64,000 nt of DNA from Patescibacteria group bacterium. GTDB lineage: Bacteria > Patescibacteriota > Microgenomatia > UBA1400 > PJMF01. Within the stretch, counting starts at the first letter, position 1; each line of letters starts with the position of its first letter. A model generated the notes under the pieces. The model worked only from the letters and a program-made list of their open reading frames with translations, ran no database searches and was not told the DNA's origin. The position numbers were made by a program, and so were the translations under genes. The DNA lies in assembly GCA_049322655.1 (NCBI GenBank), contig JBMORP010000006.1:13863-77862 (forward strand), in the 5' to 3' direction. Positions 30,233 to 59,493 of this stretch are shown one piece after another.

Positions 30233-30261
30233 TTGACAAATAAGTTATATTCAATTATAAT
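30233..30261 (+). promoter_or_regulatory. Perfect sigma70 consensus promoter TTGACA-17nt-TATAAT
   Basis: Exact consensus hexamers with a 17-nt spacer read directly from the sequence; about 160 nt upstream of the small peptide ORF. Confidence 0.6.
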
Positions 30262-30422
30262 TGTTGGTATATAAAACTTAGTGTACTGCACACTGCTGTT
30301 TTAAAATAAAAGGTAAGCAATTTATTTGCTTTCTTTCTTGAGTAAGGGCATTCATTTTAGGTATTGGTCAAGCTGATACTTAAATTGAATGCCATTATCA
30401 TTCTGAAAGGAGGTGAAATGTA

Positions 30423-30548
30423 ATGGCTACTTGTCAGCATTCTTGGTATACCAAGTCATATTTTCCGCACAGATTTTTGTTCTGGCGGTACATTTGGCAA
30501 AAGTGTACTAAATGCAATGCTTGGAGAATCAAACGATACTCTAAGTAA
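30423..30548 (+). CDS. Small ORF (41 aa) encoding a highly cationic Trp/Cys-rich peptide, MATCQHSWYTKSYFPHRFLFWRYIWQKCTKCNAWRIKRYSK; candidate leaderless-bacteriocin-like peptide
   Basis: Not in the ORF track (under 60 aa). Preceded by AAAGGAGGTG, the strongest Shine-Dalgarno site in the window, then ATG-TAA-(A)TG. Net charge +9 with no Asp/Glu. Followed by an intrinsic terminator and an ABC-2 exporter. Confidence 0.45.
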   Translation: MATCQHSWYTKSYFPHRFLFWRYIWQKCTKCNAWRIKRYSK

Positions 30549-30552
30549 AAAA

Positions 30553-30581
30553 AGAGCCGTCTCGGAAGGGACGGCTTTTCT
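30553..30581 (+). terminator. Stem-loop with short U-tract (candidate partial terminator/attenuator) between the small ORF and the ABC ATPase gene
   Basis: AGCCGTC-TCGGAAGG-GACGGCT followed by TTTC. Lies 15 nt before the ABC ATPase ATG and overlaps a TGGTATACT extended -10-like element. Confidence 0.5.
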
Positions 30582-30595
30582 GGTATACTTACCAG

Positions 30596-31534
30596 ATGAA
30601 AACTGTGCTGAAAGTAGCTGATCTCACCAAGATCTATCCACCAGAAAAAAAAGGTGGCAAGTCTTTTACTGCTTTGGACGGTGTATCTTTTGAGTTAAAA
30701 GCAGGAGAAATCTTAGGTTTATTAGGTCCCAATGGGGCTGGTAAATCTACTACTATCTCGATTTTACTGGGTAACTTATCGGCAAATTCTGGAACAGTTG
30801 AGTATTTTGGTAAAGAATTTAACCAACATCGTAGTGAGATTTTGGATCAAGTCACTTTTGCTAGCACCTATATCAAAATGCCATGGAGACTTTCGGTCAT
30901 GGAAAACCTTCGGGTCTACTCTCTTTTATACGGTGTGGAGAAAAAGGTTTTCTTGGAGAGAGCAGAAAAATTTTTAAAGTTTTTTGAGGTTTGGTCACAA
31001 AGAGACAAAACCATGAATAATTTATCTGCTGGTCAGATTACCAGAATTATGTTGGCTAAAGCCTTTATTCCCCATCCTAAAATAGTGTTATTGGATGAGC
31101 CAACTGCTTCTTTGGATCCAGATATTGCCCATCAAGTCAGAGACTTTATTAAGCAACAACAGGGCAAGTTTAATACCAGTATTTTATATACCTCTCACAA
31201 TATGGACGAAGTAGCTGATGTCTGTGATCAAGTAATGTTTCTTAAAAATGGCAAGATTATTGCTCACGACAAGCCAGAGAACTTAGCTCAATCAGTCTCG
31301 GTGGCCAAAATGACCTTGAGGATTAAAGATGGATTAAAAAGGGTGAATCGATTCTCCAAAGAGCAAAACTTGAAAATAGAAGTAGTTGATCGAGATGCCA
31401 TGATCGAAATAGATGAACAAGAAGTAGCTGGTTTTTTGGCTTTATTGGCTAGTGAGGATATTACTTACTCACAAATCAGTATCGATAAACCCACTTTAGA
31501 AGACTATTTTTTGACCATTGGTGGTAAGAAATAA
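30596..31534 (+). CDS. ABC transporter ATP-binding protein (ABC-2 exporter type)
   Basis: Walker A GPNGAGKST, signature LSAGQ, Walker B ILLDEPT, 80-aa C-terminal extension. No SD; possibly leaderless. Confidence 0.85.
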   Translation: MKTVLKVADLTKIYPPEKKGGKSFTALDGVSFELKAGEILGLLGPNGAGKSTTISILLGNLSANSGTVEYFGKEFNQHRSEILDQVTFASTYIKMPWRLSVMENLRVYSLLYGVEKKVFLERAEKFLKFFEVWSQRDKTMNNLSAGQITRIMLAKAFIPHPKIVLLDEPTASLDPDIAHQVRDFIKQQQGKFNTSILYTSHNMDEVADVCDQVMFLKNGKIIAHDKPENLAQSVSVAKMTLRIKDGLKRVNRFSKEQNLKIEVVDRDAMIEIDEQEVAGFLALLASEDITYSQISIDKPTLEDYFLTIGGKK

Positions 31535-31537
31535 AAG

Positions 31538-32332
31538 ATGAAAATACATAGAATCGAAGCCCTATTTTTAAGACACCTCTACCCACTCAGACGTGATTTT
31601 GATTTGTTGTCAGATATGATTTATTGGCCATTGATTGATACGCTAATCTGGGGAATCACGGGGCAATGGCTCAGCAAAGCTGGCAATGATGCTGGAGGCG
31701 TGGGAGCGTTATTGATCTCATTATTAATGGGTTTGGTTTTATGGAATGTGATTTGGCGTGCCCAAGCAGAAATTGCTCGCAACCTGATGGATGAGATTTG
31801 GAATAATAATCTGATCAATTTATTCTCTACTCCATTGAGAATGGATGAATGGGTTATTTCTGTCTTGCTGTTGTCGATTGTTAAAACCGGTGTAACGATG
31901 CTGATGTTATTACCAGCTATTTTCTTGTTGTACTCAGTTAACGTTTTTGAGTTGGGCTGGTGGTTACCAGTCTTCTTTTTAAGCACCACGATGACTGGGT
32001 GGTGGATGGGCTTTGTTTCTGCTGGGATTGTTCTGCGTTATGGTCCCAAGTCACAAACGGTAATCTGGACTTTGCCAGGAATTTTACTGCCTTTTAGTGC
32101 TATTTATTTCCCCTTAGCTCAATTACCCAGTTGGATTCAACCGATCAGTAGAGTCATTCCAACCACGTATATTTTTGAATCAATGAGATCATTAATCAAT
32201 GGAGGTGAGGTTGACTTATCATTAATCTTTTTAAGTTTTGGCTTAAATTTTATCTTTTTAGGTTTTGCTTTTTGGCATTTTATTAAAAGCTTTAAATATA
32301 GTGTTGAGTTGGGCTTAGGCAGATTTAACTAA
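31538..32332 (+). CDS. ABC-2 type transporter permease
   Basis: Six predicted TM helices; 3-nt gap from the ATPase gene. Confidence 0.75.
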   Translation: MKIHRIEALFLRHLYPLRRDFDLLSDMIYWPLIDTLIWGITGQWLSKAGNDAGGVGALLISLLMGLVLWNVIWRAQAEIARNLMDEIWNNNLINLFSTPLRMDEWVISVLLLSIVKTGVTMLMLLPAIFLLYSVNVFELGWWLPVFFLSTTMTGWWMGFVSAGIVLRYGPKSQTVIWTLPGILLPFSAIYFPLAQLPSWIQPISRVIPTTYIFESMRSLINGGEVDLSLIFLSFGLNFIFLGFAFWHFIKSFKYSVELGLGRFN

Positions 32333-49703: not shown

Positions 49704-50213
49704 CTAGGCTTTTTTATTGCGAGTTTTTTTATCAGGAAAATACCAAGCTTGGTCTTTTTGGGCTTGTTGAGTATTTCTAATGGCCACAGCACTCATTGCT
49801 CGGTCAAAGATAGTTACCCAATAGGGTTGTCGTTGGTTAAGTTTAATGTTTCTGGTTTTAATTGCCTCAGGAATATTAGCTGTTTCAACGGAAGTATCAG
49901 TGTAAATAAGTTTTTGAGCATTACGGCAAATGGTTAAACCATTCTCAGCAAAATCAGGATTAATATTGAATTTTTTGGCATACTTTGGGGGAATAATTTG
50001 ATGAATAATTATTTTTCCTCCACAGTTATGTTCGCCAGGAAATTGACAAGAATGTTGATCTCGTTCTTTGATCGCTGTTTTTTGTTTTTCAGAATATGCA
50101 CCCAAACTAACCAGAGTAGCAATAGCTAATAAACCCAAAGGACCAATGAGTTTTCCCCAGTCAAATCTTTCTACCAAGTTTTCTGGATTTTTGGCCATAG
50201 CGATATTATACAA
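49704..50213 (-). CDS. Membrane-anchored HNH-endonuclease-like protein (partly degenerate zinc/His motif)
   Basis: TM helix LIGPLGLLAIATLVSLGAY, then RDQHSCQFPGEHNCGGK...IHQIIP...ENGLTICRNAQK, which follows the HNH pattern (RDxxxCxxCG...DHIIP...ENLxxxCRxCNxxK) but with the second Cys pair and terminal His/Asn substituted. Overlaps the dus stop by 8 nt. Confidence 0.45.
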   Translation of the reverse strand: MYNIAMAKNPENLVERFDWGKLIGPLGLLAIATLVSLGAYSEKQKTAIKERDQHSCQFPGEHNCGGKIIIHQIIPPKYAKKFNINPDFAENGLTICRNAQKLIYTDTSVETANIPEAIKTRNIKLNQRQPYWVTIFDRAMSAVAIRNTQQAQKDQAWYFPDKKTRNKKA

Positions 50214-51285
50214 CCAAGAGTTGATGTTTTTGTAAAATTTCTTTGACTTGTTCGCTATTTTCTGTTTTTACTAATTCAATCCTAATATCACTGGCGTTGG
50301 GAAAGTTTTTAATGTACCAAGTTAGGTGTTTGCGCATTGGTAAAAACCGATAGCGTTCATCTTGTTGGTAGGTTTGCTCATAGAGCAAGCTATGTTCCAA
50401 AGCTAGAGCTGCTCGTTGTTGAATAGTAACTTCTGATTTATTTTTTAAGAACAACCAAGGATTACCAAAGCTGGCTCGACCGACTAAGATCCCATCAACT
50501 TGATATTGATTGATTTTTTCCAAAGCTTCTTCGGCCGAGTGGATATCACCATTGCCCAGAAAAGTAATATCTGAGTTATTTTGTTTGATTAGTTGGGTAG
50601 CTTTACCAATTTCCTCCCAACTAGCAAAACCAGTGTAAGCTTGGCGTAAAGTTCTACCGTGAAGAGCAATTGCAGCTGGTTCTACTTCTAATAAATATCT
50701 TAGCCAATCTTCAGTAATCACCTGGTCATAACCAACTCTAGTTTTAACACTAATAGGAATTATCCGGTTATGAGCTTGATATTGTTTGGGAAGTTGTTGG
50801 TGGCGTTGTTCAATAATTTCACAAATACTATTAGTTAAATCAGGACAGTCACGAACTGTTTGGCCACTCTGCCAATCAGCCACTCCTTGCTTGGCAGCTT
50901 TAACAATTTCTTGAGCAAGCTTTGGGGTTTTAATCAAGCCAGCTCCAGCCCCACTTTGGGAAACACTTTTGGCAGGACAACCCATATTAATATCAACACC
51001 ATCAAAACCTAATTGGCATAAAGCGATTGTTGTTTGACGAAAATATTCTGGAGTAGTGCCATAAATTTGAGCCACAATAGGTCGTTGAGTTTCATCATAA
51101 AGAAAATCGACCAGTGGTTTTTCTACTCCACGACAAAAACCTTCAACAGTGGCGAACTCAGTATAAATTACATCAGGTTGACCATGTTTTTTGGTTAAAT
51201 GACGAAAAGGATGATCTGTCACTCCGTCCATCGGTGACAAACCAATAATTGGTTTAGCTAATTTGCGCCAAAATCCAGATTCCAT
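50206..51285 (-). CDS. tRNA-dihydrouridine synthase
   Basis: Dus family TIM-barrel with PMDGVTDHPFRHL and the catalytic-Cys region (NMGCPAK). Confidence 0.8.
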   Translation of the reverse strand: MESGFWRKLAKPIIGLSPMDGVTDHPFRHLTKKHGQPDVIYTEFATVEGFCRGVEKPLVDFLYDETQRPIVAQIYGTTPEYFRQTTIALCQLGFDGVDINMGCPAKSVSQSGAGAGLIKTPKLAQEIVKAAKQGVADWQSGQTVRDCPDLTNSICEIIEQRHQQLPKQYQAHNRIIPISVKTRVGYDQVITEDWLRYLLEVEPAAIALHGRTLRQAYTGFASWEEIGKATQLIKQNNSDITFLGNGDIHSAEEALEKINQYQVDGILVGRASFGNPWLFLKNKSEVTIQQRAALALEHSLLYEQTYQQDERYRFLPMRKHLTWYIKNFPNASDIRIELVKTENSEQVKEILQKHQLLVV

Positions 51286-51334
51286 ATCAGGTATTATACT
51301 TGAAAGCTTGCGTTATAATGTGGTTATTAAATTT

Positions 51335-51406
51335 GCGGGTGTAGTACAGTGGTAGTATGTCTGCTTCCCAAGCAGAAGATCGCGAGTTCGAGCCTCGTCA
51401 CCCGCT
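51335..51406 (+). tRNA. tRNA-Gly (anticodon CCC)
   Basis: Acceptor GCGGGTG/CACCCGC, anticodon stem TCTGC/GCAGA, loop TTCCCAA, T-loop TTCGAGC. Confidence 0.85.
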
Positions 51407-51414
51407 CAGCAATG

Positions 51415-51440
51415 AAAAAGCTCCATACGGAGCTTTTTTA
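51415..51440. terminator. Bidirectional rho-independent terminator after tRNA-Gly(CCC) and after gene 51438..51749 (-)
   Basis: AAAAAGCTCC-ATAC-GGAGCTTTTTT. Confidence 0.7.
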
Positions 51441-51749
51441 ACTTTTATTTTCTTTTTTAATAGTTTTCCAATGATAAAAATAAACTGGTCCACCAACCAG
51501 CATCATGGCTAGGCTATTGCTAAATTGTCTTTTTCTTTGATTGGCTTGTTCTTCTTCATACATTTTTTTGTTTTGTTCTCTGATGGCAGGAGACTCTGTT
51601 TCGGCATAGTAGTAACCATAATCATTAACTTTAAACACATAAGTTTTTAGGGTAAGATCCACGATTTGGATGCTACCAATAATTAAAATTAGTAAGCCGA
51701 CAAAAGAAAAAAGATACAAGTAAAGCAAACGTAAGTTGAGTTTCATCAT
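51438..51749 (-). CDS. Small membrane protein (103 aa, two TM helices), unknown function
   Basis: Hydrophobic helices LLYLYLFSFVGLLILIIGSI and LAMMLVGGPVYFY; inside the tRNA-bounded island. Confidence 0.45.
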   Translation of the reverse strand: MMKLNLRLLYLYLFSFVGLLILIIGSIQIVDLTLKTYVFKVNDYGYYYAETESPAIREQNKKMYEEEQANQRKRQFSNSLAMMLVGGPVYFYHWKTIKKENKS

Positions 51750-51776
51750 TAGCCTTTCAACTATCAGTTTACCATT

Positions 51777-51803
51777 ATAAAAAAAGCTCCGTATATAGGA
51801 GCT
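51777..51803 (-). terminator. Rho-independent terminator (minus strand) downstream of gene 51890..52195
   Basis: On the minus strand: AGCTCC-TATATAC-GGAGCT followed by TTTTTT. Confidence 0.6.
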
Positions 51804-51889
51804 CAGATAAATGTTTTTGTTAAAGCCACACTGATTTTTAGTTTTTCAATGGAAGAGGAGGCGCACATGAGTTGTGCACCTCCTCTTTT

Positions 51890-52195
51890 CTAAGGGTACA
51901 AAACCTCATCCACATGGTCTTTCCAGTCATCAGGAATCGGGAAAATTGGTGAGTAAGCATAAATCAGGTGCTGCACCAACGATCCGATAGCTATTGACAG
52001 GATAATCCAAAGTCCAGGTTTTACGTGGATGGAAATCACGAAAAAAGCAATCATTGCAAGAACCATCACATTGTGGTGATAGTTATACTTCAGCGTTTTC
52101 GTAATTTTCCAAAGGAGGAAGGTCAGTACGTTTCCGGCTACTGCCTGGGCTAACGCCCAAAGTACAATCCAGATAATCCAAAGATGTGTGTTCAT
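51890..52195 (-). CDS. Small membrane protein (101 aa, about 3 TM helices), GC-enriched relative to surroundings
   Basis: RBS GAGAGG 7 nt before the ATG. Hydrophobic helices. A 150-nt stretch that I counted is about 44% GC, against about 35% background. Confidence 0.5.
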   Translation of the reverse strand: MNTHLWIIWIVLWALAQAVAGNVLTFLLWKITKTLKYNYHHNVMVLAMIAFFVISIHVKPGLWIILSIAIGSLVQHLIYAYSPIFPIPDDWKDHVDEVLYP

Positions 52196-52241
52196 AGTTT
52201 ACCTCTCGTTTTTTTACTCTCTCCTGTTTTACCAGGAGAGG

Positions 52242-52288
52242 CTTGGGGAAAATAAAACTTATTATAAATAAGCTTTATTTTCCCCAAG
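52242..52288. repeat. 21-bp near-perfect inverted repeat (CTTGGGGAAAATAAAACTTAT / ATAAGCTTTATTTTCCCCAAG) with 5-nt spacer, adjacent to a second hairpin (52219..52240, CTCTCCTG-TTTTAC-CAGGAGAG)
   Basis: Read directly from the sequence; one mismatch in 21 bp; no flanking U-tract on either strand, so it is not a canonical terminator. Confidence 0.7.
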
Positions 52289-52435
52289 TACATAGAGGTA
52301 GCTAAAATCAGTGTGGCAGTATTCTGCTAATAATAAAGATTAGTTTGAAAGCAATTTTCATTTAAACTTTATTATTAATTTTAAAGAACCTGTCCATTAT
52401 ATCTTACATCCTATAATTTGTCAATATAAGACTAT

Positions 52436-53344
52436 TTAATGAATAGTACTCCAGTGAGTTTCATCATTAGATCCTTTAAAACCGTAAATTTTCATCCAGC
52501 TGTTATTTCCGGCTGAATCAACTTGAGATTGCCACTCACTAAATTCTAGGCCAAACTCAGCAAAAGCTTTAAGTTTTCTTTTTAAGGCTGATTGTGAATC
52601 ACTCATTAAATAACGAAGGCTTTCCAAAAAAGAATAGATTGTTCTGAGATGCTTGGCTGAAAGTTTATTGGCTAAATCAATTTCTATTTTTTGGTAATTA
52701 GCGGCTGAGAATTGATACTCAATTTCTTGTTGGTCAAAATTGTAGTTGGCACCAATCACAATGGTTACAGCTTCAAAATTACTTATTTTGATAATGATCA
52801 TGTCAGCAGGAGAGGTGTCTGCTTCTAGGCTACGCAGTTGAAAAGTATCGAGTCTCATCTCAATGTAACAACCGCTAAATTCTTTTTGAGTCCGATCTCC
52901 CATTTTAAAAACAAAAAACTCATTACTTCTTTCTTTATTACCTAGATCTGGAGGGTTATTCATCACAATCAATTCGGTAATTCCAGGCATTTTTAACCAA
53001 TCAAGGTATTCATGAGTTAAAAAGTTTTCAATATCAGCCACAGTTTTAATACCCATAACCCAAGGAGAATTGTTTGGCTGTGGAGAAAAACAAGTTCTAA
53101 CACCAACATTACAACCTCTTTTTACACCATTGAGTAATTCTTCAATTAACTGTTCTCGGTTGTTAACAGGAATAATTTCTCTAGAAATAATGGTTTTTTT
53201 AGGAAGTAAATTACAGTTAGAAGTGAAAAATCCTTCAGTCTGGGCTTTTTTACTTTTCCAAATATGACTAACAGTATTACTAAATTGTTCTAAGATTTGT
53301 CTATAATTAAGAATTTGATGATTAGTTTCCTGATAATTAGTCAT
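52436..53344 (-). CDS. Hypothetical protein (302 aa), no recognisable domain; orphan inside the tRNA-bounded island
   Basis: Long uninterrupted ORF in AT-rich DNA; no motif I could assign. Confidence 0.4.
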   Translation of the reverse strand: MTNYQETNHQILNYRQILEQFSNTVSHIWKSKKAQTEGFFTSNCNLLPKKTIISREIIPVNNREQLIEELLNGVKRGCNVGVRTCFSPQPNNSPWVMGIKTVADIENFLTHEYLDWLKMPGITELIVMNNPPDLGNKERSNEFFVFKMGDRTQKEFSGCYIEMRLDTFQLRSLEADTSPADMIIIKISNFEAVTIVIGANYNFDQQEIEYQFSAANYQKIEIDLANKLSAKHLRTIYSFLESLRYLMSDSQSALKRKLKAFAEFGLEFSEWQSQVDSAGNNSWMKIYGFKGSNDETHWSTIH

Positions 53345-53456
53345 AATTAGGGAAAAAAGAACAACTTTATTATTCTCCCTAAAAAGCTAGTATACCATTT
53401 TTTTGCTTGATCTGGCTTTTAGTGGTACCAGGTTGTAAAATTTAGCCTACAACCAA

Positions 53457-53529
53457 GCCAGAATAGCTCAGTTGGTAGAGCGACGGTATCGTAAACCGTA
53501 GGTCAAGGGTTCGATCCCCTTTTCTGGCT
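53457..53529 (+). tRNA. tRNA-Thr (anticodon CGT)
   Basis: Acceptor GCCAGAA/TTCTGGC, anticodon stem ACGGT/ACCGT, loop ATCGTAA, T-loop TTCGATC. The next CDS starts 4 nt after its 3' end. Confidence 0.9.
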
Positions 53530-53533
53530 CATC

Positions 53534-54163
53534 ATGAGAAAAGTTGATACTGTTATTTTTGATTTTGATGGTACGATTGCTGATACTCTTGAGGCTATGG
53601 TCGATTTATTCAATCAAGTTTCAGTTAAATATCAGTTACCCCAAATTGCTCAAGCTGATCGAGAAAAAATCAGAAACTTAAGTGCTAGGGAGTTGATTGA
53701 AGAATTTAAGATTTCTCGATTAAAGTTTATTCGTTTAACCAAAGAAATTTTACCTAAATTAAAAAATAATCTTCAGCAGTTGAACTTAATTTCAGGATTA
53801 GAAGAATTACTAATTGATTTAAAAGAAAAAGGTTTTCAAATCGGGATTGTTAGTTCTAATTCTAAGGAAAATATTGAGCTTTTTTTAAATTATCATCAAA
53901 TAAAAGGAATAGATTTTATTTATGCTGAAAAAAGCTTATTTGGTAAAGCTAAAGTTTTGAGCAATGTTTTGAAAAAACATCACTTAACTGCCGCTAAAGT
54001 AATTTATGTTGGTGATGAAGTGAGGGATATAGAAGCATCTCACCAGGCTGGTTTGCCGATTATTGCTGTGACTTGGGGCCTTAATTCTAAGGCAAGACTG
54101 CAAAAAGCTAAACCTGACTATATAATTGATCAACCGAAGGAACTTTTAACAAAATTAACTTAA
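53534..54163 (+). CDS. HAD-superfamily hydrolase (phosphoglycolate phosphatase-like)
   Basis: Motif I VIFDFDGTIADT, motif III/IV region (VIYVGDEVRDIEASHQAG). Confidence 0.8.
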   Translation: MRKVDTVIFDFDGTIADTLEAMVDLFNQVSVKYQLPQIAQADREKIRNLSARELIEEFKISRLKFIRLTKEILPKLKNNLQQLNLISGLEELLIDLKEKGFQIGIVSSNSKENIELFLNYHQIKGIDFIYAEKSLFGKAKVLSNVLKKHHLTAAKVIYVGDEVRDIEASHQAGLPIIAVTWGLNSKARLQKAKPDYIIDQPKELLTKLT

Positions 54164-54188: not shown

Positions 54189-54905
54189 ATGCTAAGAACT
54201 GCTAATTCACGTTTAACTAGAACTCAAGGTAAAAAAATTGCTCGTCAATCAGTGGCGATGATTGTTTTCTCTATTGTTGCTGTTTTAGTTTTCTTTTTGG
54301 TGATAATGCCTAGATTAATTAATTTATTTTTTAACTTTTTAGGTACAGGTGATATTAGTTTTAAAGAAAAAGATGAGGTTCCACCTCAGGTACCAATTAT
54401 CTTACCTTTTCCGGACTCAATTAAAGATGCTGTTTTGACCATTGAGGGTTTTGCTGAGGCCAAAAGTAAAGTAGTGGTAGTCAAAAATGGTGAACGGGCC
54501 GAGGAGATTGTTGTTAACGATGAGGGCTCTTTTGAGTATCAACTGACTTTGACAGAAGGTGAGAATAAGTTGAGTTTTTATGGTGTAGATGAGGCTGGCA
54601 ATGAGTCAAATACAACCAATGATATGTTCATTAATTTGGATAATGAAGCACCGATATTGGAATTAGAAAACCTTACTGATGGTCAAGAAATTTTGGCTAA
54701 AGAAAACCAAAACTATGCTATCAAAGGTAAAACCGAGCCCCATTCCAAATTACATATTAATGAGCGTTCCGTTTATGTAGACAGTGAAGGTAACTTTAAG
54801 GTTGCTTATTATCTTGAAGAGGGAGACAACGAACTTAAATTTAAAATTGAAGATCGTGCAGGAAATGTGACAGAGCAAACCCTAAGGATAAAGTTTAGAC
54901 TTTAG
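54189..54905 (+). CDS. Membrane-anchored protein with Ig-like (Big-like) beta-sandwich repeats
   Basis: N-terminal TM (IVFSIVAVLVFFLVI), then two repeats of the GxxExKxxxxDxAGNxS-type pattern (DEAGNESN, DRAGNVTE). Confidence 0.45.
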   Translation: MLRTANSRLTRTQGKKIARQSVAMIVFSIVAVLVFFLVIMPRLINLFFNFLGTGDISFKEKDEVPPQVPIILPFPDSIKDAVLTIEGFAEAKSKVVVVKNGERAEEIVVNDEGSFEYQLTLTEGENKLSFYGVDEAGNESNTTNDMFINLDNEAPILELENLTDGQEILAKENQNYAIKGKTEPHSKLHINERSVYVDSEGNFKVAYYLEEGDNELKFKIEDRAGNVTEQTLRIKFRL

Positions 54906-54915
54906 TTTGTTTAAG

Positions 54916-56073
54916 CTAATCATTACTTATTTTTTTACTACTGAATAAATTCAAAAAAACAAAAGGTTGGAGCAAAGTATTATTGAATAGGCTGTGAATC
55001 AAAACAGTAATTAATAATATGCCCCACAATTTATCTTGTTTGTAAAATATTTTTATCCATTTGAAAGTTAGTAGGCCAAATAAAGTTAAACCAATTACTC
55101 CGGTGCCATTAATCACTAAAATTAACAGATTATCTGGTAATTGGGCGTGGTTGTTAGTGTAACTAGTTTTTTGAGCATCATTATTAAATAATCCTCTACC
55201 CCATAGCCATTGAGAGCCTTCTAAAGTAATCAAGTTTTCTTGAATATTTTCTGACCTAGCTTCAAGGGTACTTGTTCTAGCTAGATTAACACCTTCTCCT
55301 CCTGGTTTTGGTAATAGAATAATGGTTAGTAAAAAAACTATACCCAAAAAACTCCATTTAATTTTTTGGTTAGTAGTCAGCCACTGATGGGTGGTTAGCA
55401 GACCTAAGGCTAAGTAACTGGCCCTGGAAAAAGTGGCAGCAATCGCCAGAATGAGGATTGTTTGAGTTAGCCAACCGCTTTGTTGGTAGGCTGGTTTTTG
55501 ATTAATAAGTCTTTGCCATAGGCCAACGGTTAAGACCAGAATTATGCCAGTGAAAGCTGGATCAAAAATAGTACTGATTAATCGATAGTAATGATTGTCC
55601 CAGCCGAAAATATTAAGAAATCTTACATCTGGTATGGCTATATATTGACCCAATCCCCAAACTCCAATCAGTGTCCCAGCAATTAGTAGACCTAGATATG
55701 GTTGATAAGTTAACTTAACTTTTTGTAGAGCATAAACAAATAAACCATAGTCAACTAGCCGCAAGAGGTAAAGCCAACTTTTGGGAGTAATTCTTCCTTC
55801 CCACGAACCAAGCAGCATGCCAACCATAACTAAAGCTAATAAACTTAATTCTAGCCTGAACTTTGGCCAGGAAATTTTTTTGTAGTTAAAAAAATTGTTT
55901 TTGTTTTGCCATAAAAACCCAACTACAAAAATAGTAATAATAATGTCGTGAAGATAAAAAGCGATATCACCTTGAAGTTGAATTCTTTGTAATTGGCCCA
56001 AAGAAAAAACCATCCAAAATAATGTAAAAGTCAAAGTGAAAAAATTAGTGGTAATGGTTTTAATGATTTTCAT
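54916..56073 (-). CDS. O-antigen ligase/polymerase (Wzy/WaaL)-like multi-pass membrane protein
   Basis: About 10 TM helices with a large periplasmic loop; genomic context with GT2 and flippase genes. Confidence 0.5.
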   Translation of the reverse strand: MKIIKTITTNFFTLTFTLFWMVFSLGQLQRIQLQGDIAFYLHDIIITIFVVGFLWQNKNNFFNYKKISWPKFRLELSLLALVMVGMLLGSWEGRITPKSWLYLLRLVDYGLFVYALQKVKLTYQPYLGLLIAGTLIGVWGLGQYIAIPDVRFLNIFGWDNHYYRLISTIFDPAFTGIILVLTVGLWQRLINQKPAYQQSGWLTQTILILAIAATFSRASYLALGLLTTHQWLTTNQKIKWSFLGIVFLLTIILLPKPGGEGVNLARTSTLEARSENIQENLITLEGSQWLWGRGLFNNDAQKTSYTNNHAQLPDNLLILVINGTGVIGLTLFGLLTFKWIKIFYKQDKLWGILLITVLIHSLFNNTLLQPFVFLNLFSSKKISND

Positions 56074-56842
56074 AAGAAAACACTCTAACCATGATGGAGT
56101 GCAAACTCATGATTGTAGCGTAAACTAAGCCTCGCCAACCATCTAAAAAACCCAGCTTAAAAAGATAATTTACTAAGAACTTACTTTTTGGGTAAATGAT
56201 GGTTTTTAAACCCAAAACTGCGGGACTGAGTAAATCATCAGTTTGGTATTCTGCTTCTAGCTCAGCATAATGAGTGACATCTTGAATAAACTCAGAAATA
56301 TTTTGGTGGGAGTAATGAATGATCTGAATTTTACTGTATTCAGTGGTACCTTGAACGATAGCTTGTTCATGAACAGGTCTTAAATATTGAGCTTTATCTT
56401 TGCGGATAAGTCTTAAAAATTTATTGCCACCAGTTTCTCCAAATTTAAGGGCTCGGTCATAAAAAATATCAGTTCGCTCAACCAGATAACCATCAACTCC
56501 ACTATCATTAGTGACTAGAGCTGTGATCTCTGGCCAACTTGTAGGGATAATTTCTTCATCACTGTCCAAAAAGAAAATCCATTCAGAGTTGCTTTCTTTT
56601 AGAGCCAAGTTCCTTTCTTGAGAAAAATTCTCGATTAAGCCAGTTCTTTTAATTAGTTTGAAGTGATATTTTTTGGCTAGTTCTTGCCAGTTATTACCAC
56701 TTTGGTAATCAATCACTAAGACTTCAGCGGCTAGTTGGGCTGATTGTAAAGCTTTAATAAAGCGTTGATCTTGACGATGAGTTAGGATAATGACACTAAG
56801 TGGTACTTTATTTTTTATCATGAGCTCTGTGTAGTATACCAA
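56060..56842 (-). CDS. Glycosyltransferase family 2
   Basis: GT-A fold N-terminus (LSVIILTHRQDQRFIK) and DxD-type FLDSDEEI. Confidence 0.75.
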   Translation of the reverse strand: MVYYTELMIKNKVPLSVIILTHRQDQRFIKALQSAQLAAEVLVIDYQSGNNWQELAKKYHFKLIKRTGLIENFSQERNLALKESNSEWIFFLDSDEEIIPTSWPEITALVTNDSGVDGYLVERTDIFYDRALKFGETGGNKFLRLIRKDKAQYLRPVHEQAIVQGTTEYSKIQIIHYSHQNISEFIQDVTHYAELEAEYQTDDLLSPAVLGLKTIIYPKSKFLVNYLFKLGFLDGWRGLVYATIMSLHSIMVRVFSYENH

Positions 56843-58034
56843 CTAGAATAAGAGGTAAAGCAATTAATCTAGATACCAAAATACCATAGACAGCGCCAAG
56901 TAGTTGGTAACTACTTCCCCACCAAAGCAGTAAAATTATCATCAAAACCAATGAACTAAGTAGATGTAGGTTAAGAATCTTATATTGTTTTCTGGCTAAG
57001 AATAAGGCATAGCTTTGATTACTAATACTTTGGGCAATGCCAGCAAAAATTAAAGGTCTTACCAAAGGAATAACTTCTAGCCATTGTTGGCCTAGAATTA
57101 ATTTAACAAAGAATCCTGGAAAAATAATTAAGGGTAGTGAAGCAAAGCTAATCAAAGCAATTAAAGCTAACATTGAACGATAAAAAGCTCTTTGTAATCT
57201 CAGGGGTGAATCAGTTAGCATGGTAAAAGCAGGTAAGGTACTGTGATGAACAGATTTAGAAAAATCATAATTAGCCTTGTGACTTAGAGCATAACTGTTG
57301 TGGTAGATGCCCAGAGCATGAGTGCCAAATATCTTGCCTAAAATGAAATCATCGACATTTTCATTAAGATAATTAAAAACAGTTGAAAGACTGAGCCACT
57401 TGGCATTATTTAAGATTGTTTTGCCTTTTGAAGGTAGATAGTTAAATTTTGGTTTAAGTTTGAAAAAAATAAAAGAAATAATTACTTCGTAAATAGCACC
57501 AATAATTAGGGCAAAAACTAAAGACCAAACCGAGTGAGTTAAAAAACCAAGAATAACTGCAGCTAGGCTTTCAACTAAAATTAAAGAAAATCGATAAAGA
57601 CTATCTTGGAAAAATCTCATCTCTTTATGCAAAATGACAATATAAGGATTAATAAAACCTTTAATAATCGGCACTAGGGCTGCAACAGCAATCAGCATTA
57701 ATAATTGTGGCTCTTGGTAGAAGTTTTGCATGAACAGACCCATGAGCAACATGATGATGCCAATGACAAAGCCTCTAATAATGGCGACAACCCAAGCAGT
57801 ATCAATAAAGCTTTTTACAGATTGTTTTGATTGAAGAATCGTGACGTTAATTCCTGTTTGAGTCAGACTTTCGGTGATGCCCAAAGTAATAGCAGTTAAA
57901 GAAAATAGACCAAAAGCTTGAGGGTCTAAAAGCCGAGCCAAAAAGTACATTTTAATCATGGCAATCCCTACCAAGATTGCCTTGTAAATGGTTTGCCAAC
58001 TAAAACCAACTAGAGTTTTTTGTGTATAACTCAT
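56808..58034 (-). CDS. Polysaccharide biosynthesis flippase (Wzx-like, MOP/PST family)
   Basis: Twelve or so TM helices with the PST-family N-terminus (LVGFSWQTIYKAILVGIAMIKMYFLARLLDPQAFGLFSL). Confidence 0.65.
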   Translation of the reverse strand: MSYTQKTLVGFSWQTIYKAILVGIAMIKMYFLARLLDPQAFGLFSLTAITLGITESLTQTGINVTILQSKQSVKSFIDTAWVVAIIRGFVIGIIMLLMGLFMQNFYQEPQLLMLIAVAALVPIIKGFINPYIVILHKEMRFFQDSLYRFSLILVESLAAVILGFLTHSVWSLVFALIIGAIYEVIISFIFFKLKPKFNYLPSKGKTILNNAKWLSLSTVFNYLNENVDDFILGKIFGTHALGIYHNSYALSHKANYDFSKSVHHSTLPAFTMLTDSPLRLQRAFYRSMLALIALISFASLPLIIFPGFFVKLILGQQWLEVIPLVRPLIFAGIAQSISNQSYALFLARKQYKILNLHLLSSLVLMIILLLWWGSSYQLLGAVYGILVSRLIALPLILVGILHRAHDKK

Positions 58035-58110
58035 CTGAATAATTATAGGTGAATTTTATTAGGGCTGATAGTAGCTCTCATTAACAAAAAGTGGCATAAT
58101 TGTTTTCGTT

Positions 58111-58692
58111 ATGTCAAATGCTACTAAAAAAATTGGTTCCTTTTTTACTGACCTAATGGAAACAATTGTTATTTCTGCTTCTATTTTTTTGATTGTTTAT
58201 TTATTTTTTGTTCAGCCACATCAAGTTAATGGTCAATCGATGGTGCCCAATTTTCAAAGTGGTGAATATGTTTTAACTGACAAAGTTAGTTACAAAATGG
58301 GCAACCCTAAAAGAGGTGATGTGATTGTTTTTCATGCTCCAGAAGCCGCACACTGTGCAGAAGGAACGGGGTGTGATTTTATTAAGCGAGTTTTAGCAGT
58401 GCCTGGTGATACGGTTGAAGTAAAAAATAATGCTATTTATGTGAATGGCCAGCAATTACCAGAGCCATATATTCCGGCTGATTTTAAAGTTTTGCCAGGT
58501 GCTTATACAAAAAATGGTCCAGTTTTGATGGGTAGTAATGAATATTTTGTCAGTGGTGATAACAGGCCTTATTCTAGTGATTCAAGAACTTGGGGGCCTA
58601 TTACAAAGCAAGACATTGTGGGGAAGGCTTTCTTCAGGTACTGGCCCCCAGCTGTTGTTGGTCCAATCTATAGTGCTACTTATCCATTTTAA
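58111..58692 (+). CDS. lepB: Signal peptidase I
   Basis: GQSMVP (catalytic Ser), KRVLAVPGD (catalytic Lys region), GDNRPYSSDSRTWGPI. Confidence 0.85.
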   Translation: MSNATKKIGSFFTDLMETIVISASIFLIVYLFFVQPHQVNGQSMVPNFQSGEYVLTDKVSYKMGNPKRGDVIVFHAPEAAHCAEGTGCDFIKRVLAVPGDTVEVKNNAIYVNGQQLPEPYIPADFKVLPGAYTKNGPVLMGSNEYFVSGDNRPYSSDSRTWGPITKQDIVGKAFFRYWPPAVVGPIYSATYPF

Positions 58693-58734
58693 AAATGCTT
58701 AAAATTTTACTTTTCGGTTTATTGGTCAAAGGCA

Positions 58735-59493
58735 TTAGTTTCTTGGTGAGGTGGCTAAAAACTGTTCGCCAAAAGAAAAAGTTTTAGGATCAAAAATCTG
58801 CTGAGCCTGAGTGACATCATAATTATTAATTTTGGTTCTTCTTAATTCAGTCACACAAGCTCCCACTCCCAAATCCTGACCAATATCATGAATTAGCGAT
58901 CTAATATAGGTTCCAGAACTTACTGTGGTTTCGATTGAAAAATAAACCTCTTTAGTCAAAATATCTTTTTTTAGTTGGGTTAAGACTAGAGAATAAAGTT
59001 CTACGTTTCTAGTGGGCAAATCTTGTTGGTTAAGAGTTTCTCCAAGAGCTTTGTCATAAAGTTTTTGGCCAGCAATCTTAACGGCAGAAAAAGCTGGGAC
59101 AGTTTGGGTGATTTTACCTCTGAACTTAGTCAATGTTTTTTCCATAAGCGTGGAGTCAAGATATTTTAATTTTTCCCAGCTAGTTTGGTTTGTTTTTTGA
59201 CCAGTAATATCATAAGTATTAGTAGTTAAGCCAAGTTTGGCGGTACAAGAATAGGTTTTGTCCAGCTTCAAAAAAGCTGATTGGAGTTTGGTGTAGTTTC
59301 TGCCAACTAAAACAATGAGCAAGCCAGAAGCCAACGGATCTAAGGTACCAGAATGGCCTACTCTTTTAATACCAGTGATTTTTCTCATTCTATTAACTAC
59401 TCCATGACTACTAATTCCACTTGGTTTATCAATCAAAAAGATCCCTTCTGTTCCTTTAGTGGGTGGTTTCGATTGAGTCTTAGCTAGAGTCAT
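58735..59493 (-). CDS. truB: tRNA pseudouridine(55) synthase
   Basis: GHSGTLDPLASGLLIVLVGR catalytic Asp motif. Confidence 0.85.
   Translation of the reverse strand: MTLAKTQSKPPTKGTEGIFLIDKPSGISSHGVVNRMRKITGIKRVGHSGTLDPLASGLLIVLVGRNYTKLQSAFLKLDKTYSCTAKLGLTTNTYDITGQKTNQTSWEKLKYLDSTLMEKTLTKFRGKITQTVPAFSAVKIAGQKLYDKALGETLNQQDLPTRNVELYSLVLTQLKKDILTKEVYFSIETTVSSGTYIRSLIHDIGQDLGVGACVTELRRTKINNYDVTQAQQIFDPKTFSFGEQFLATSPRN

Follow-up and report, generated by a model that had tools for sequence, protein, structure and literature searches.

The locus described here lies in a 64-kb stretch of DNA from a Patescibacteria group bacterium (GCA_049322655.1, contig JBMORP010000006.1), which at its full length we call the window, and consists of the interval between the genes for tRNA-Gly(CCC) and tRNA-Thr(CGT), which we call the slot. 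ARAGORN, Rfam, and the list of open reading frames (ORFs) confirm that the two tRNA genes enclose three coding sequences (CDSs), all on the minus strand: a gene for a DUF5671 membrane protein of 103 amino acids (aa), a gene for a further membrane protein of 101 aa, and a gene for a 302-aa protein, which, like its gene, is referred to as X. These are the only ORFs of at least 40 aa in the slot that are neither nested in nor antisense to others. The terminators and the large palindrome noticed on first inspection are equally real, and comprise three hairpins and a palindrome with 22-nt arms (Table 1). An original prediction, made from the sequence of the window, read this assemblage as an island of foreign origin at a tRNA integration hotspot, with the layout of an abortive-infection or toxin-effector module. 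Its features are real and its claims are partly confirmed: We consider it likely that the slot is not a mobile or integrated defence island but a conserved chromosomal slot with reshuffled content, in which three separate genes stand side by side.

The composition of the slot as a whole is native. Its GC content is 35.4% (32nd percentile of same-size windows) compared with 36.0% for the window, and both the 103-aa gene (31.4%) and the gene of X (32.9%) lie below the window average and show native synonymous-codon usage (z +0.5 and z +1.0, respectively). The atypical composition is confined to the 101-aa gene. The GC enrichment claimed for this gene is weak in bulk GC (42.8% versus 36.0%, 97th percentile of same-size windows) but strong at the third codon position (GC3), where it reaches 0.51 compared with 0.269 ± 0.039 in 55 genes of the window (z +6.2). 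This value is attained by none of 1343 in-frame control windows of 102 codons, and at the codon level the difference therefore does not vanish upon proper calculation. The synonymous-codon score of the gene (z −4.6) likewise lies below all 587 control windows. Foreign origin is thus supported for the 101-aa gene alone, which is an outlier in GC3 and codon usage and has no homologue beyond the sister strains introduced below, and it does not hold for the slot as a unit, in which X is syntenic and the 302-aa and 103-aa genes use native codons.

Gene order was compared in the orientation of the window on the contigs of the X homologue clusters. Five clusters of close homologues exist, at 94, 70, 56, 54, and 47% identity to X, and the contigs L007, L008, and L010 represent sister strains (~93% identical). 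The window and these sister strains (X at 94%) share the order Dus, tRNA-Gly, 103-aa gene, 101-aa gene, X, tRNA-Thr, HAD, Big_6, and Wzy. At 70% identity (L020) the order is HD, X, tRNA-Thr, and HAD; at 56% (L002–L006, on contigs of up to 610 kb) it is Dus, tRNA-Gly, HAD, inositol monophosphatase, HD, X, tRNA-Thr, Big_6, and Wzy; and at 47% (L009) it is Dus, an 86-aa ORF, CPDase, X, and a tRNA-Thr fragment. The linkage of X to tRNA-Thr(CGT) is kept in all four divergence classes, with the tRNA gene directly upstream of the X-family gene in the window, L007, L020, L002, and, as a partial tRNA, L009; only the left part of the slot varies. At 56% identity, X has moreover diverged at about the pace of its neighbours, Dus (69%), Big_6 (68%), and Wzy (63%). 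Because of this persistent linkage and the concerted divergence, gene order and identity levels indicate that X is ancestral to the lineage and vertically inherited.

The remainder of the slot has a different history. Homologues of the 101-aa and 103-aa genes occur in the sister strains only and in none of the other loci examined, and the 64-kb window contains no homologues of the HD and inositol-monophosphatase genes. The two small genes would thus have replaced the HD and inositol-monophosphatase genes that relatives hold in the slot. Conserved synteny together with native composition, which would speak against an island, consequently holds for X, whereas the small genes are lineage-specific, the 103-aa gene with native and the 101-aa gene with non-native composition. 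An empty slot with directly adjacent tRNA genes, as anticipated for relatives that lack an island, was never encountered: HD, inositol-monophosphatase, and HAD genes lie between tRNA-Thr and tRNA-Gly instead. The HAD phosphatase gene itself has changed position: It is found beyond tRNA-Thr in the window (53534-54163) and in the 70% relative (L020:3-221), and inside the slot beside tRNA-Gly in the 56% relative (L002:12434-13078), where its product is 47% identical to the HAD phosphatase of the window. As judged from these positions, the gene was either relocated or replaced by a non-orthologous one.

At closer range, the window and L010 resemble each other in a mosaic pattern: Identity stands at ~99% across 46-50.4 kb and again across 59.2-63.3 kb, drops to 92-94% over 50.4-53.2 kb, and is lowest (86-92%) in the polysaccharide locus, which spans 54.4-59.2 kb. 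We rejected the idea that the slot is a unique peak of divergence between the strains, as the raised divergence also reaches into Dus and the polysaccharide locus is more divergent still. This surface-polysaccharide locus (54400-59200), which encodes Big_6, Wzy_C, a glycosyltransferase, and flippase-like proteins, is embedded in flanks of ~99% identity, which points to recombination or diversifying exchange.

The sister strains also document what the tRNA border can accommodate. Between the 103-aa gene and tRNA-Gly(CCC) they carry an extra segment of ~170 bp with 45% GC (L007:7791-7990, L008:2050-2249, L010:11908-12107), bounded by a 19-nt direct repeat, TGAGCGGGTGACGAGGCTC, that equals the 3′ end of tRNA-Gly. 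Rfam detects no RNA family in this segment, and the corresponding site of the window (51408-51437) lacks it. The arrangement indicates that the insert is the footprint of an integration and that tRNA-Gly(CCC) is used as an attachment site in the population. In L007, L008, and L010, the 19-nt repeat bounds nothing beyond the 170-bp insert. The claimed integration hotspot is borne out by this small insert of the sister strains and not by the window, where neither an integrase nor an att-like repeat accompanies the slot.

These findings bear on the reading that the whole slot is a horizontally acquired, tRNA-integrated island carrying an abortive-infection or toxin module composed of two membrane effectors and a cytoplasmic sensor. 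The two bordering tRNA genes, the atypical codon usage of the 101-aa gene, the lineage specificity of both small membrane genes, and the 19-nt tRNA duplication, which marks the tRNA as an integration site in the population, are what such an island would lead one to expect, and they parallel tRNA-linked islands and prophage-style “moron” cassettes, as does the equipment of the 101-aa gene with a promoter and a terminator of its own. The slot nevertheless differs from these elements in that it is mostly native and syntenic and devoid of phage genes. No integrase was found among the slot ORFs with Pfam, NCBIfam, and PHROGs, and a direct-repeat search of window positions 51250-53650 yielded no tRNA-derived, att-like repeat. 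PADLOC returned sub-threshold matches only, the best with E 0.0012 (PDC-M48A, on a transmembrane segment of the 103-aa protein) and the next with E 0.064; the matches of the small proteins fall on transmembrane segments, and X gives no match at all. In PHROGs, too, X is without a match, and those of the two small proteins are weak (E 0.018-0.06). Neither 50,697 phage records, searched with tblastn, nor IMG/VR yielded anything meaningful, and no phage or viral relatives of the 101-aa protein were among them. On these grounds, a defence or phage origin of the slot was rejected. In sum, four hallmarks of tRNA islands were checked, namely an integrase, a distal repeat of the tRNA 3′ end, island-wide atypical composition, and absence from relatives that keep the flanks, and none was found. 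X, by contrast, is syntenic with tRNA-Thr down to 47% identity and native in codon usage, its homologues occur without these membrane genes, and relatives place housekeeping-type phosphatase and HD genes in a slot that is never empty. The island is largely refuted already by this evidence, and we rate it as very improbable.

The transcriptional organization leads to the same result. A perfect sigma-70 promoter separates the 302-aa gene from the 101-aa gene, and an intrinsic terminator separates the latter from the 103-aa gene. Because of these two elements, the three genes form no operon, which in turn undercuts the inference of a module; the proposed abortive-infection or toxin-effector layout finds no support in view of this split and of the occurrence of the X family without these membrane genes. 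Instead, the slot would hold three independent monocistronic units. Perfect matches to the sigma-70 consensus are rare: 0.04 are expected in 64 kb and two are observed, and both hexamers of the promoter in the slot are unchanged in the sister strains. The 103-aa gene is flanked by two similar terminator hairpins, one of which, with A/T runs on both sides, is probably a bidirectional terminator common to this gene and tRNA-Gly. Its product matches Pfam DUF5671 (PF18920; 35.9 bits compared with a gathering threshold of 28.4, E 8e-9) and has one strong hydrophobic segment at residues 4-38, so that it looks like an ordinary small DUF5671 membrane protein of native composition.

Table 1. Features of the slot and its borders, in window coordinates.
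Feature	Position	Strand	Evidence and remarks
tRNA-Gly(CCC)	51335..51407	+	Left slot border; ARAGORN, Rfam RF00005 (67.7 bits); same border in L002 and L007
Hairpin with A/T runs on both sides	51413..51440		Terminator scan and inverted repeat; site of the sister-strain insert
103-aa ORF	51438..51749	-	DUF5671 small membrane protein
Intrinsic terminator	51784..51804	-	Terminator scan; 7-bp stem followed by TTTTTTT; invariant in sister strains; ends the 101-aa transcript
GC-rich hairpin	51853..51887	-	Inverted repeat; just after the 101-aa stop codon
101-aa ORF	51890..52195	-	Orphan membrane protein; ~3 hydrophobic segments, acidic C-terminal tail
Structured 5′ leader, ~195 nt	52196..52390	-	RNA fold −70.4 kcal/mol, z −9.1
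Shine–Dalgarno sequence GAGAGG	52202-52207	-	Leader; paired with the anti-Shine–Dalgarno sequence in the fold
8-bp hairpin	52219-52240	-	Leader
Palindrome, 22-nt arms	52242-52263 / 52267-52288	-	Leader; 95% complementarity
Anti-Shine–Dalgarno sequence CCUCU	52294-52298	-	Leader
14-nt perfect long-range inverted repeat	5′ arm 52304-52317, 3′ arm 51825-51838	-	5′–3′ fold-back
Upstream hairpin	52328-52377	-	Leader
Sigma-70 promoter TTGACA-17-TATAAT	52396..52424	-	12/12 consensus; predicted to drive the 101-aa gene
302-aa ORF (X)	52436..53344	-	Unannotated family; predicted ATP-grasp-like nucleotide-binding fold
tRNA-Thr(CGT)	53457..53530	+	Right slot border; ARAGORN and Rfam

With the slot resolved into separate genes, X emerges as the member of a rare protein family. 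The original prediction described the 302-aa protein as an orphan and all three products as lacking recognisable domains. This holds insofar as X has no sequence-family match in Pfam, NCBIfam, PADLOC, or PHROGs and searches against PDB sequence profiles are empty; it does not hold for the 103-aa protein with its DUF5671 domain or for the predicted fold of X, and the orphan status is contradicted by 74 representative clusters that match X at E <=1e-3 in an exhaustive profile search (clusters at 50% identity among 1.8 billion proteins). Repeating the protein search with the broad alignment returned the same five close homologues, and a metagenome scan returned one already-known contig. Compared with L007, X has a dN/dS of 0.075 at a dS of 0.335, and the substitutions concentrate at codon position 3, as expected for a real gene; this pattern of substitution indicates that X is under strong purifying selection. 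An alignment of 30 sequences identifies K33, R171, E270, and Q272 as invariant, and P48, G81, R83, P94, W95, F108, W116, N130, F144, E162, T167, L170, G198, Y287, and G291 as conserved in at least 90%.

The architecture of the family is informative. About 40 of the 74 representatives are stand-alone proteins of 250-400 aa, and 23 are fusions 713-912 aa long whose last ~300 residues are X, with a PPDK_N domain (PF01326) and a PEP-utilizers swivel domain (PF00391) on its N-terminal side. In one of them (P0018), TIGR01828 model positions 1-574 are matched with E 1e-221, followed by X, and the protein scores above the cut-off of the short-PPDK model NF004531. Within the fusions, X therefore occupies the position that in PPDK and phosphoenolpyruvate (PEP) synthase is taken by the PEP/pyruvate barrel, and at least 13 of the 23 fusions keep the catalytic histidine motif T/SxxGGxx[ST]H. 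At one locus of a distant relative (L021:3179-7212, GCA_041749495.1), a PEP carboxykinase gene is followed by separate genes for PPDK_N (291 aa) and for swivel plus X (403 aa). The dikinase may truly be split here, or the order may result from a frameshift in the assembly (a nearby SOD gene is also split), and the neighbourhood hints at a role of the fused enzyme in PEP metabolism. Among the stand-alone homologues, those at L017:88-2776 (26% identity) and L011:3-1657 (36%) adjoin radical-SAM genes, one of which encodes a B12-binding protein and is followed by a 73-aa ORF; in these lineages a link of X to peptide or metabolite modification is possible.

Structure prediction supplied what the sequence profiles did not. 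Given the 30-sequence alignment, AlphaFold2 models X with a pLDDT of 92.8 and a pTM of 0.90, whereas six sequences only gave a poor prediction (pLDDT 59). In structure comparisons, the model comes closest to the nucleotide-binding domains of HpeI, PPDK, rifampin phosphotransferase, and nucleoside diphosphate (NDP)-forming acyl-CoA synthetases (beta subunits), and dozens more ATP-grasp enzymes follow below. Foldseek searches against PDB and BFVD likewise place ATP-grasp proteins on top. On the basis of this model, we are confident in predicting an ATP-grasp-like fold for X. At the level of sequence profiles, neither X nor any of the 30 family members matches an ATP-grasp family in Pfam or NCBIfam, and PDB profiles give no such match either; the domain of X itself does not qualify as PPDK_N by PF01326. 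An origin of X as a duplicate of PPDK_N was examined and rejected, since an hhalign comparison of the X-family profile with the N-terminal PPDK_N domains of the fusions is not significant (E 0.12) and the PDB profile searches are empty.

The identity of the neighbours suggests how such a module might work. In its two-component dikinase, HpeI provides the stand-alone ATP-grasp subunit, and the swivel histidine resides on the partner protein (PMC12167813). The top neighbours can therefore be described as ATP-grasp modules whose phosphate exchange involves a mobile phosphohistidine, in agreement with the swivel domains of the X fusions. X would bind a nucleotide or another phosphoryl donor or acceptor together with Mg2+, and would either hand phosphate to a phosphohistidine partner or receive it from one, the gene of the partner lying elsewhere in the genome. 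Judged from its invariant (K33, R171, E270, Q272) and near-invariant (R83, E162) residues, X most likely acts in phosphoryl transfer by this route. The K, R, E, and Q set, including an E-x-Q in a C-terminal strand, resembles the ATP/Mg2+-binding signatures of ATP-grasp enzymes, a likeness of motifs rather than of structurally mapped positions.

X is not a copy of any of the systems that it resembles. With HpeI, PpsB, and CreI, the stand-alone ATP-grasp subunits of two-component small-molecule dikinases (PMC12167813), it shares a likeness in fold but no detectable sequence similarity, and no HpeH-like partner lies near X; furthermore, in the fusions X is located C-terminal to the swivel domain and a canonical PPDK_N is also present, so that X constitutes a second ATP-grasp-like module. 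In contrast to PPDK and PEP synthase (PF01326, PF00391, and PF02896), the fusions contain X in place of the PEP/pyruvate TIM barrel, and the protein of the window consists of X alone, lacking both the swivel histidine domain and the barrel. NDP-forming acyl-CoA synthetases, the succinyl-CoA synthetase beta subunit, and PatZ differ by their CoA-binding and ligase-CoA domains, which X does not have, and by the absence of sequence similarity.

Two observations sit uneasily with the assignment of X to phosphohistidine-coupled phosphoryl transfer. A PPDK_N or swivel partner was found neither in the six frames of the window nor in the fetched loci of close relatives by tblastn and hidden Markov model searches; and the neighbourhoods of stand-alone X genes vary, and include the housekeeping genes PyrH and YchF, radical-SAM genes, Fpg, and an integrase. 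X might instead be a scaffold, ATP-grasp-like but degenerate, to which the second substrate of a dikinase, other than the nucleotide, binds in the way seen for rifampin-binding or PEP/pyruvate domains, or a conventional ATP-grasp ligase without phosphohistidine chemistry. Such roles would suit the position after the swivel domain, which is that of a second-substrate domain, the full N-terminal PPDK-type ATP-grasp already present in the fusions, the PEP carboxykinase gene at the fused or split locus with its hint of carbon metabolism, and the missing sequence similarity to PPDK_N. They agree less well with the nearest structures, which are specifically phosphohistidine-coupled nucleotide-binding modules, or with the resemblance to ATP/Mg2+ signatures of those K, R, E, and Q residues that never or hardly ever vary, and we hold them to be rather unlikely. 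Our preferred assignment remains phosphoryl transfer with a phosphohistidine partner.

We now turn to the 101-aa gene, the compositional exception of the slot. Its annotated frame can be taken as coding, because no alternative frame of the region restores the native GC1/2/3 pattern, the substitutions relative to L007 fall on position 3 (6/3/16 differences by codon position), and dN/dS is 0.10 at a dS of 0.29. An RNA gene hidden behind the GC enrichment was rejected as an explanation: Rfam, at the gathering threshold and at E values up to 1, returns only the two tRNAs and sub-threshold noise, and the codon pattern is that of a coding sequence. GC3 is high in all thirds of the gene (0.53, 0.47, 0.52), and the rare G/C-ending codons CTG, ACG, CAC, AAC, and TTC are used across amino-acid families. 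The protein belongs to no family in Pfam, NCBIfam, PADLOC, PHROGs, phage records, or IMG/VR, and its homologues amount to one cluster at 96% identity among 5.8 billion proteins. The GC3 of 51% together with this lack of homologues suggests that the gene was recently acquired. An exact 16-nt direct repeat, TGAGTTTCATCATTAG, occurs in the start-codon region of the 103-aa gene (51737-51752) and in the last codons of the 302-aa gene (52455-52470); it may be due to chance or may be left over from the rearrangement by which the small genes came to lie here.

The transcript of this gene is exceptional as well. Extending over 613 nt from the predicted start at ~52390 to the terminator, it folds with a minimum free energy (MFE) of −217 kcal/mol, compared with −131.5 ± 5.4 for shuffled sequences (z −15.9), and no other segment of the window is as strongly structured (z −4.7 for MFE regressed on GC over 508 windows from the two strands). 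The 14-nt arms are paired in the MFE structure of the window transcript as well as in that of L007, which would join the 5′ and 3′ ends of the transcript, and the palindrome of the leader has no further copy in the window. The L007 transcript has an MFE of −203, and the sister strains have kept the general architecture, including the hexamers of the promoter and the two arms of the fold-back. Two changes relative to L007 are compensatory: a G-C to A-U exchange in the helix that adjoins the pairing of the Shine–Dalgarno (SD) and anti-SD sequences, and an A-U to G-C exchange in the post-stop hairpin. Many predicted pairs within the CDS, on the other hand, are broken in the sister strains. The 101-aa gene would accordingly be laid out as a self-contained cassette of perfect promoter, SD-sequestering leader, gene, post-stop hairpin, and terminator, and the predicted folding of its mRNA suggests tight translational control of the membrane protein. 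Most likely, its product is a small membrane protein under such control that was acquired recently or evolves fast.

A comparable arrangement is known from type I toxin–antitoxin systems: In hok/sok, a 5′–3′ fold-back and sequestration of the SD sequence block translation until the mRNA is processed. By prediction, the 101-aa mRNA shares the fold-back, the sequestered SD sequence, the high stability, and the hydrophobic product, and one may ask whether the product is a toxin-like membrane protein silenced by its own mRNA fold. The strong promoter, the SD/anti-SD pairing, the extreme folding z-scores, the compensatory changes in the helices of the untranslated regions (UTRs), and the orphan distribution with its atypical composition are all compatible with such a toxin. 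However, with 101 aa and ~3 hydrophobic segments the product is too long for a class in which typical toxins have fewer than 60 aa, and an antisense RNA promoter or gene was not identified: The promoter scan reveals no convincing plus-strand promoter over the leader and Rfam matches are sub-threshold, no dedicated antisense search having been made. The dN/dS of 0.10 and the presence in all sister strains fit an ordinary regulated membrane protein equally well, and we judge a gated toxin of the type I kind to be quite improbable.

Weightier is the question whether the gene was transferred at all. Its GC3 excess could stem from selective pressure towards an mRNA that is compact and stable, or from a different local constraint, in a gene that arose or evolved in situ. 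The CDS of the 101-aa gene is more stable than all 100 shuffles (z −3.5), as opposed to that of the 103-aa gene (z +0.2), and within the window the complete transcript stands out by its structure; the databases searched contain neither a donor nor a homologue beyond the sister strains; and the dS of 0.29 is near the 0.335 of X, which argues against a very recent arrival. Conversely, most predicted pairs within the CDS are broken by L007 substitutions and compensation is found in UTR helices only, GC3 is uniformly high along the gene, and the spread of rare G/C-ending codons across families looks like a different mutational background. We doubt this in situ origin, yet take it seriously as a possibility. 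To the account of an acquired, translationally controlled gene it opposes two difficulties, the missing donor lineage and a high GC3 that possibly stems from mRNA-structure selection, and two more arise from the data themselves: The transcript ends are predicted by promoter and terminator scans, and the conservation of the mRNA structure rests on two distinct sequences.

A bolder combination of these readings, which we consider unlikely and put forward as speculation, would see X as an unrecognised phosphohistidine-coupled ATP-grasp-like module that replaces the PPDK barrel and thereby creates two nucleotide-type sites around one swivel histidine, as in a pyrophosphate- or phosphate-linked nucleotide phosphotransferase; here, the module would be stand-alone, vertically inherited, and active in trans. 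Separately, the 101-aa cassette would encode a membrane toxin gated by its mRNA fold and larger than those of type I.

Two further loci of the window deserve mention. The other perfect TTGACA-N17-TATAAT promoter (30233-30261, plus strand) is situated just after tRNA-Asp and is followed by a strongly folding leader, which belongs to the second most structured region of the window (30233-32332). Next come a 41-aa ORF rich in Cys, aromatic, and basic residues (30423-30548), a terminator-like hairpin, and an ABC ATPase gene (30596-31534, read from its translation), and then a 264-aa ORF (31538-32332) that, again as read from the translation, is mostly hydrophobic and apparently membrane-spanning and has the highest GC3 (0.41) among the larger genes of the window. 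This region may encode a small peptide and an export or immunity transporter. A 169-aa ORF (49704-50213, minus strand) is located between Dus and a UvrD/PDDEXK helicase-nuclease in all relatives; it has no Pfam match and a weak PHROG match to an HNH endonuclease (E 0.004).

Taken together, the slot illustrates how a plausible false lead can be corrected: For a defence island, flanking tRNA genes plus small membrane genes are not enough, and the synteny of relatives was decisive. It also demonstrates that bulk GC can mask a strong anomaly at the third codon position. Two aspects of the slot, both resting on prediction, appear noteworthy, namely an unannotated ATP-grasp-like family with PPDK fusions and an unusually folded single-gene cassette. 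The latter, with its perfect promoter and exceptionally folded mRNA, is a candidate for translational gating. The X family is rare and has no Pfam or NCBIfam model, and its fusions to PPDK nucleotide-binding and swivel domains suggest a new branch of phosphohistidine dikinases; for a conserved hypothetical gene of a bacterium that, judging from contig sizes and gene content, appears to be uncultured and to have a small genome, this would provide a first functional handle.

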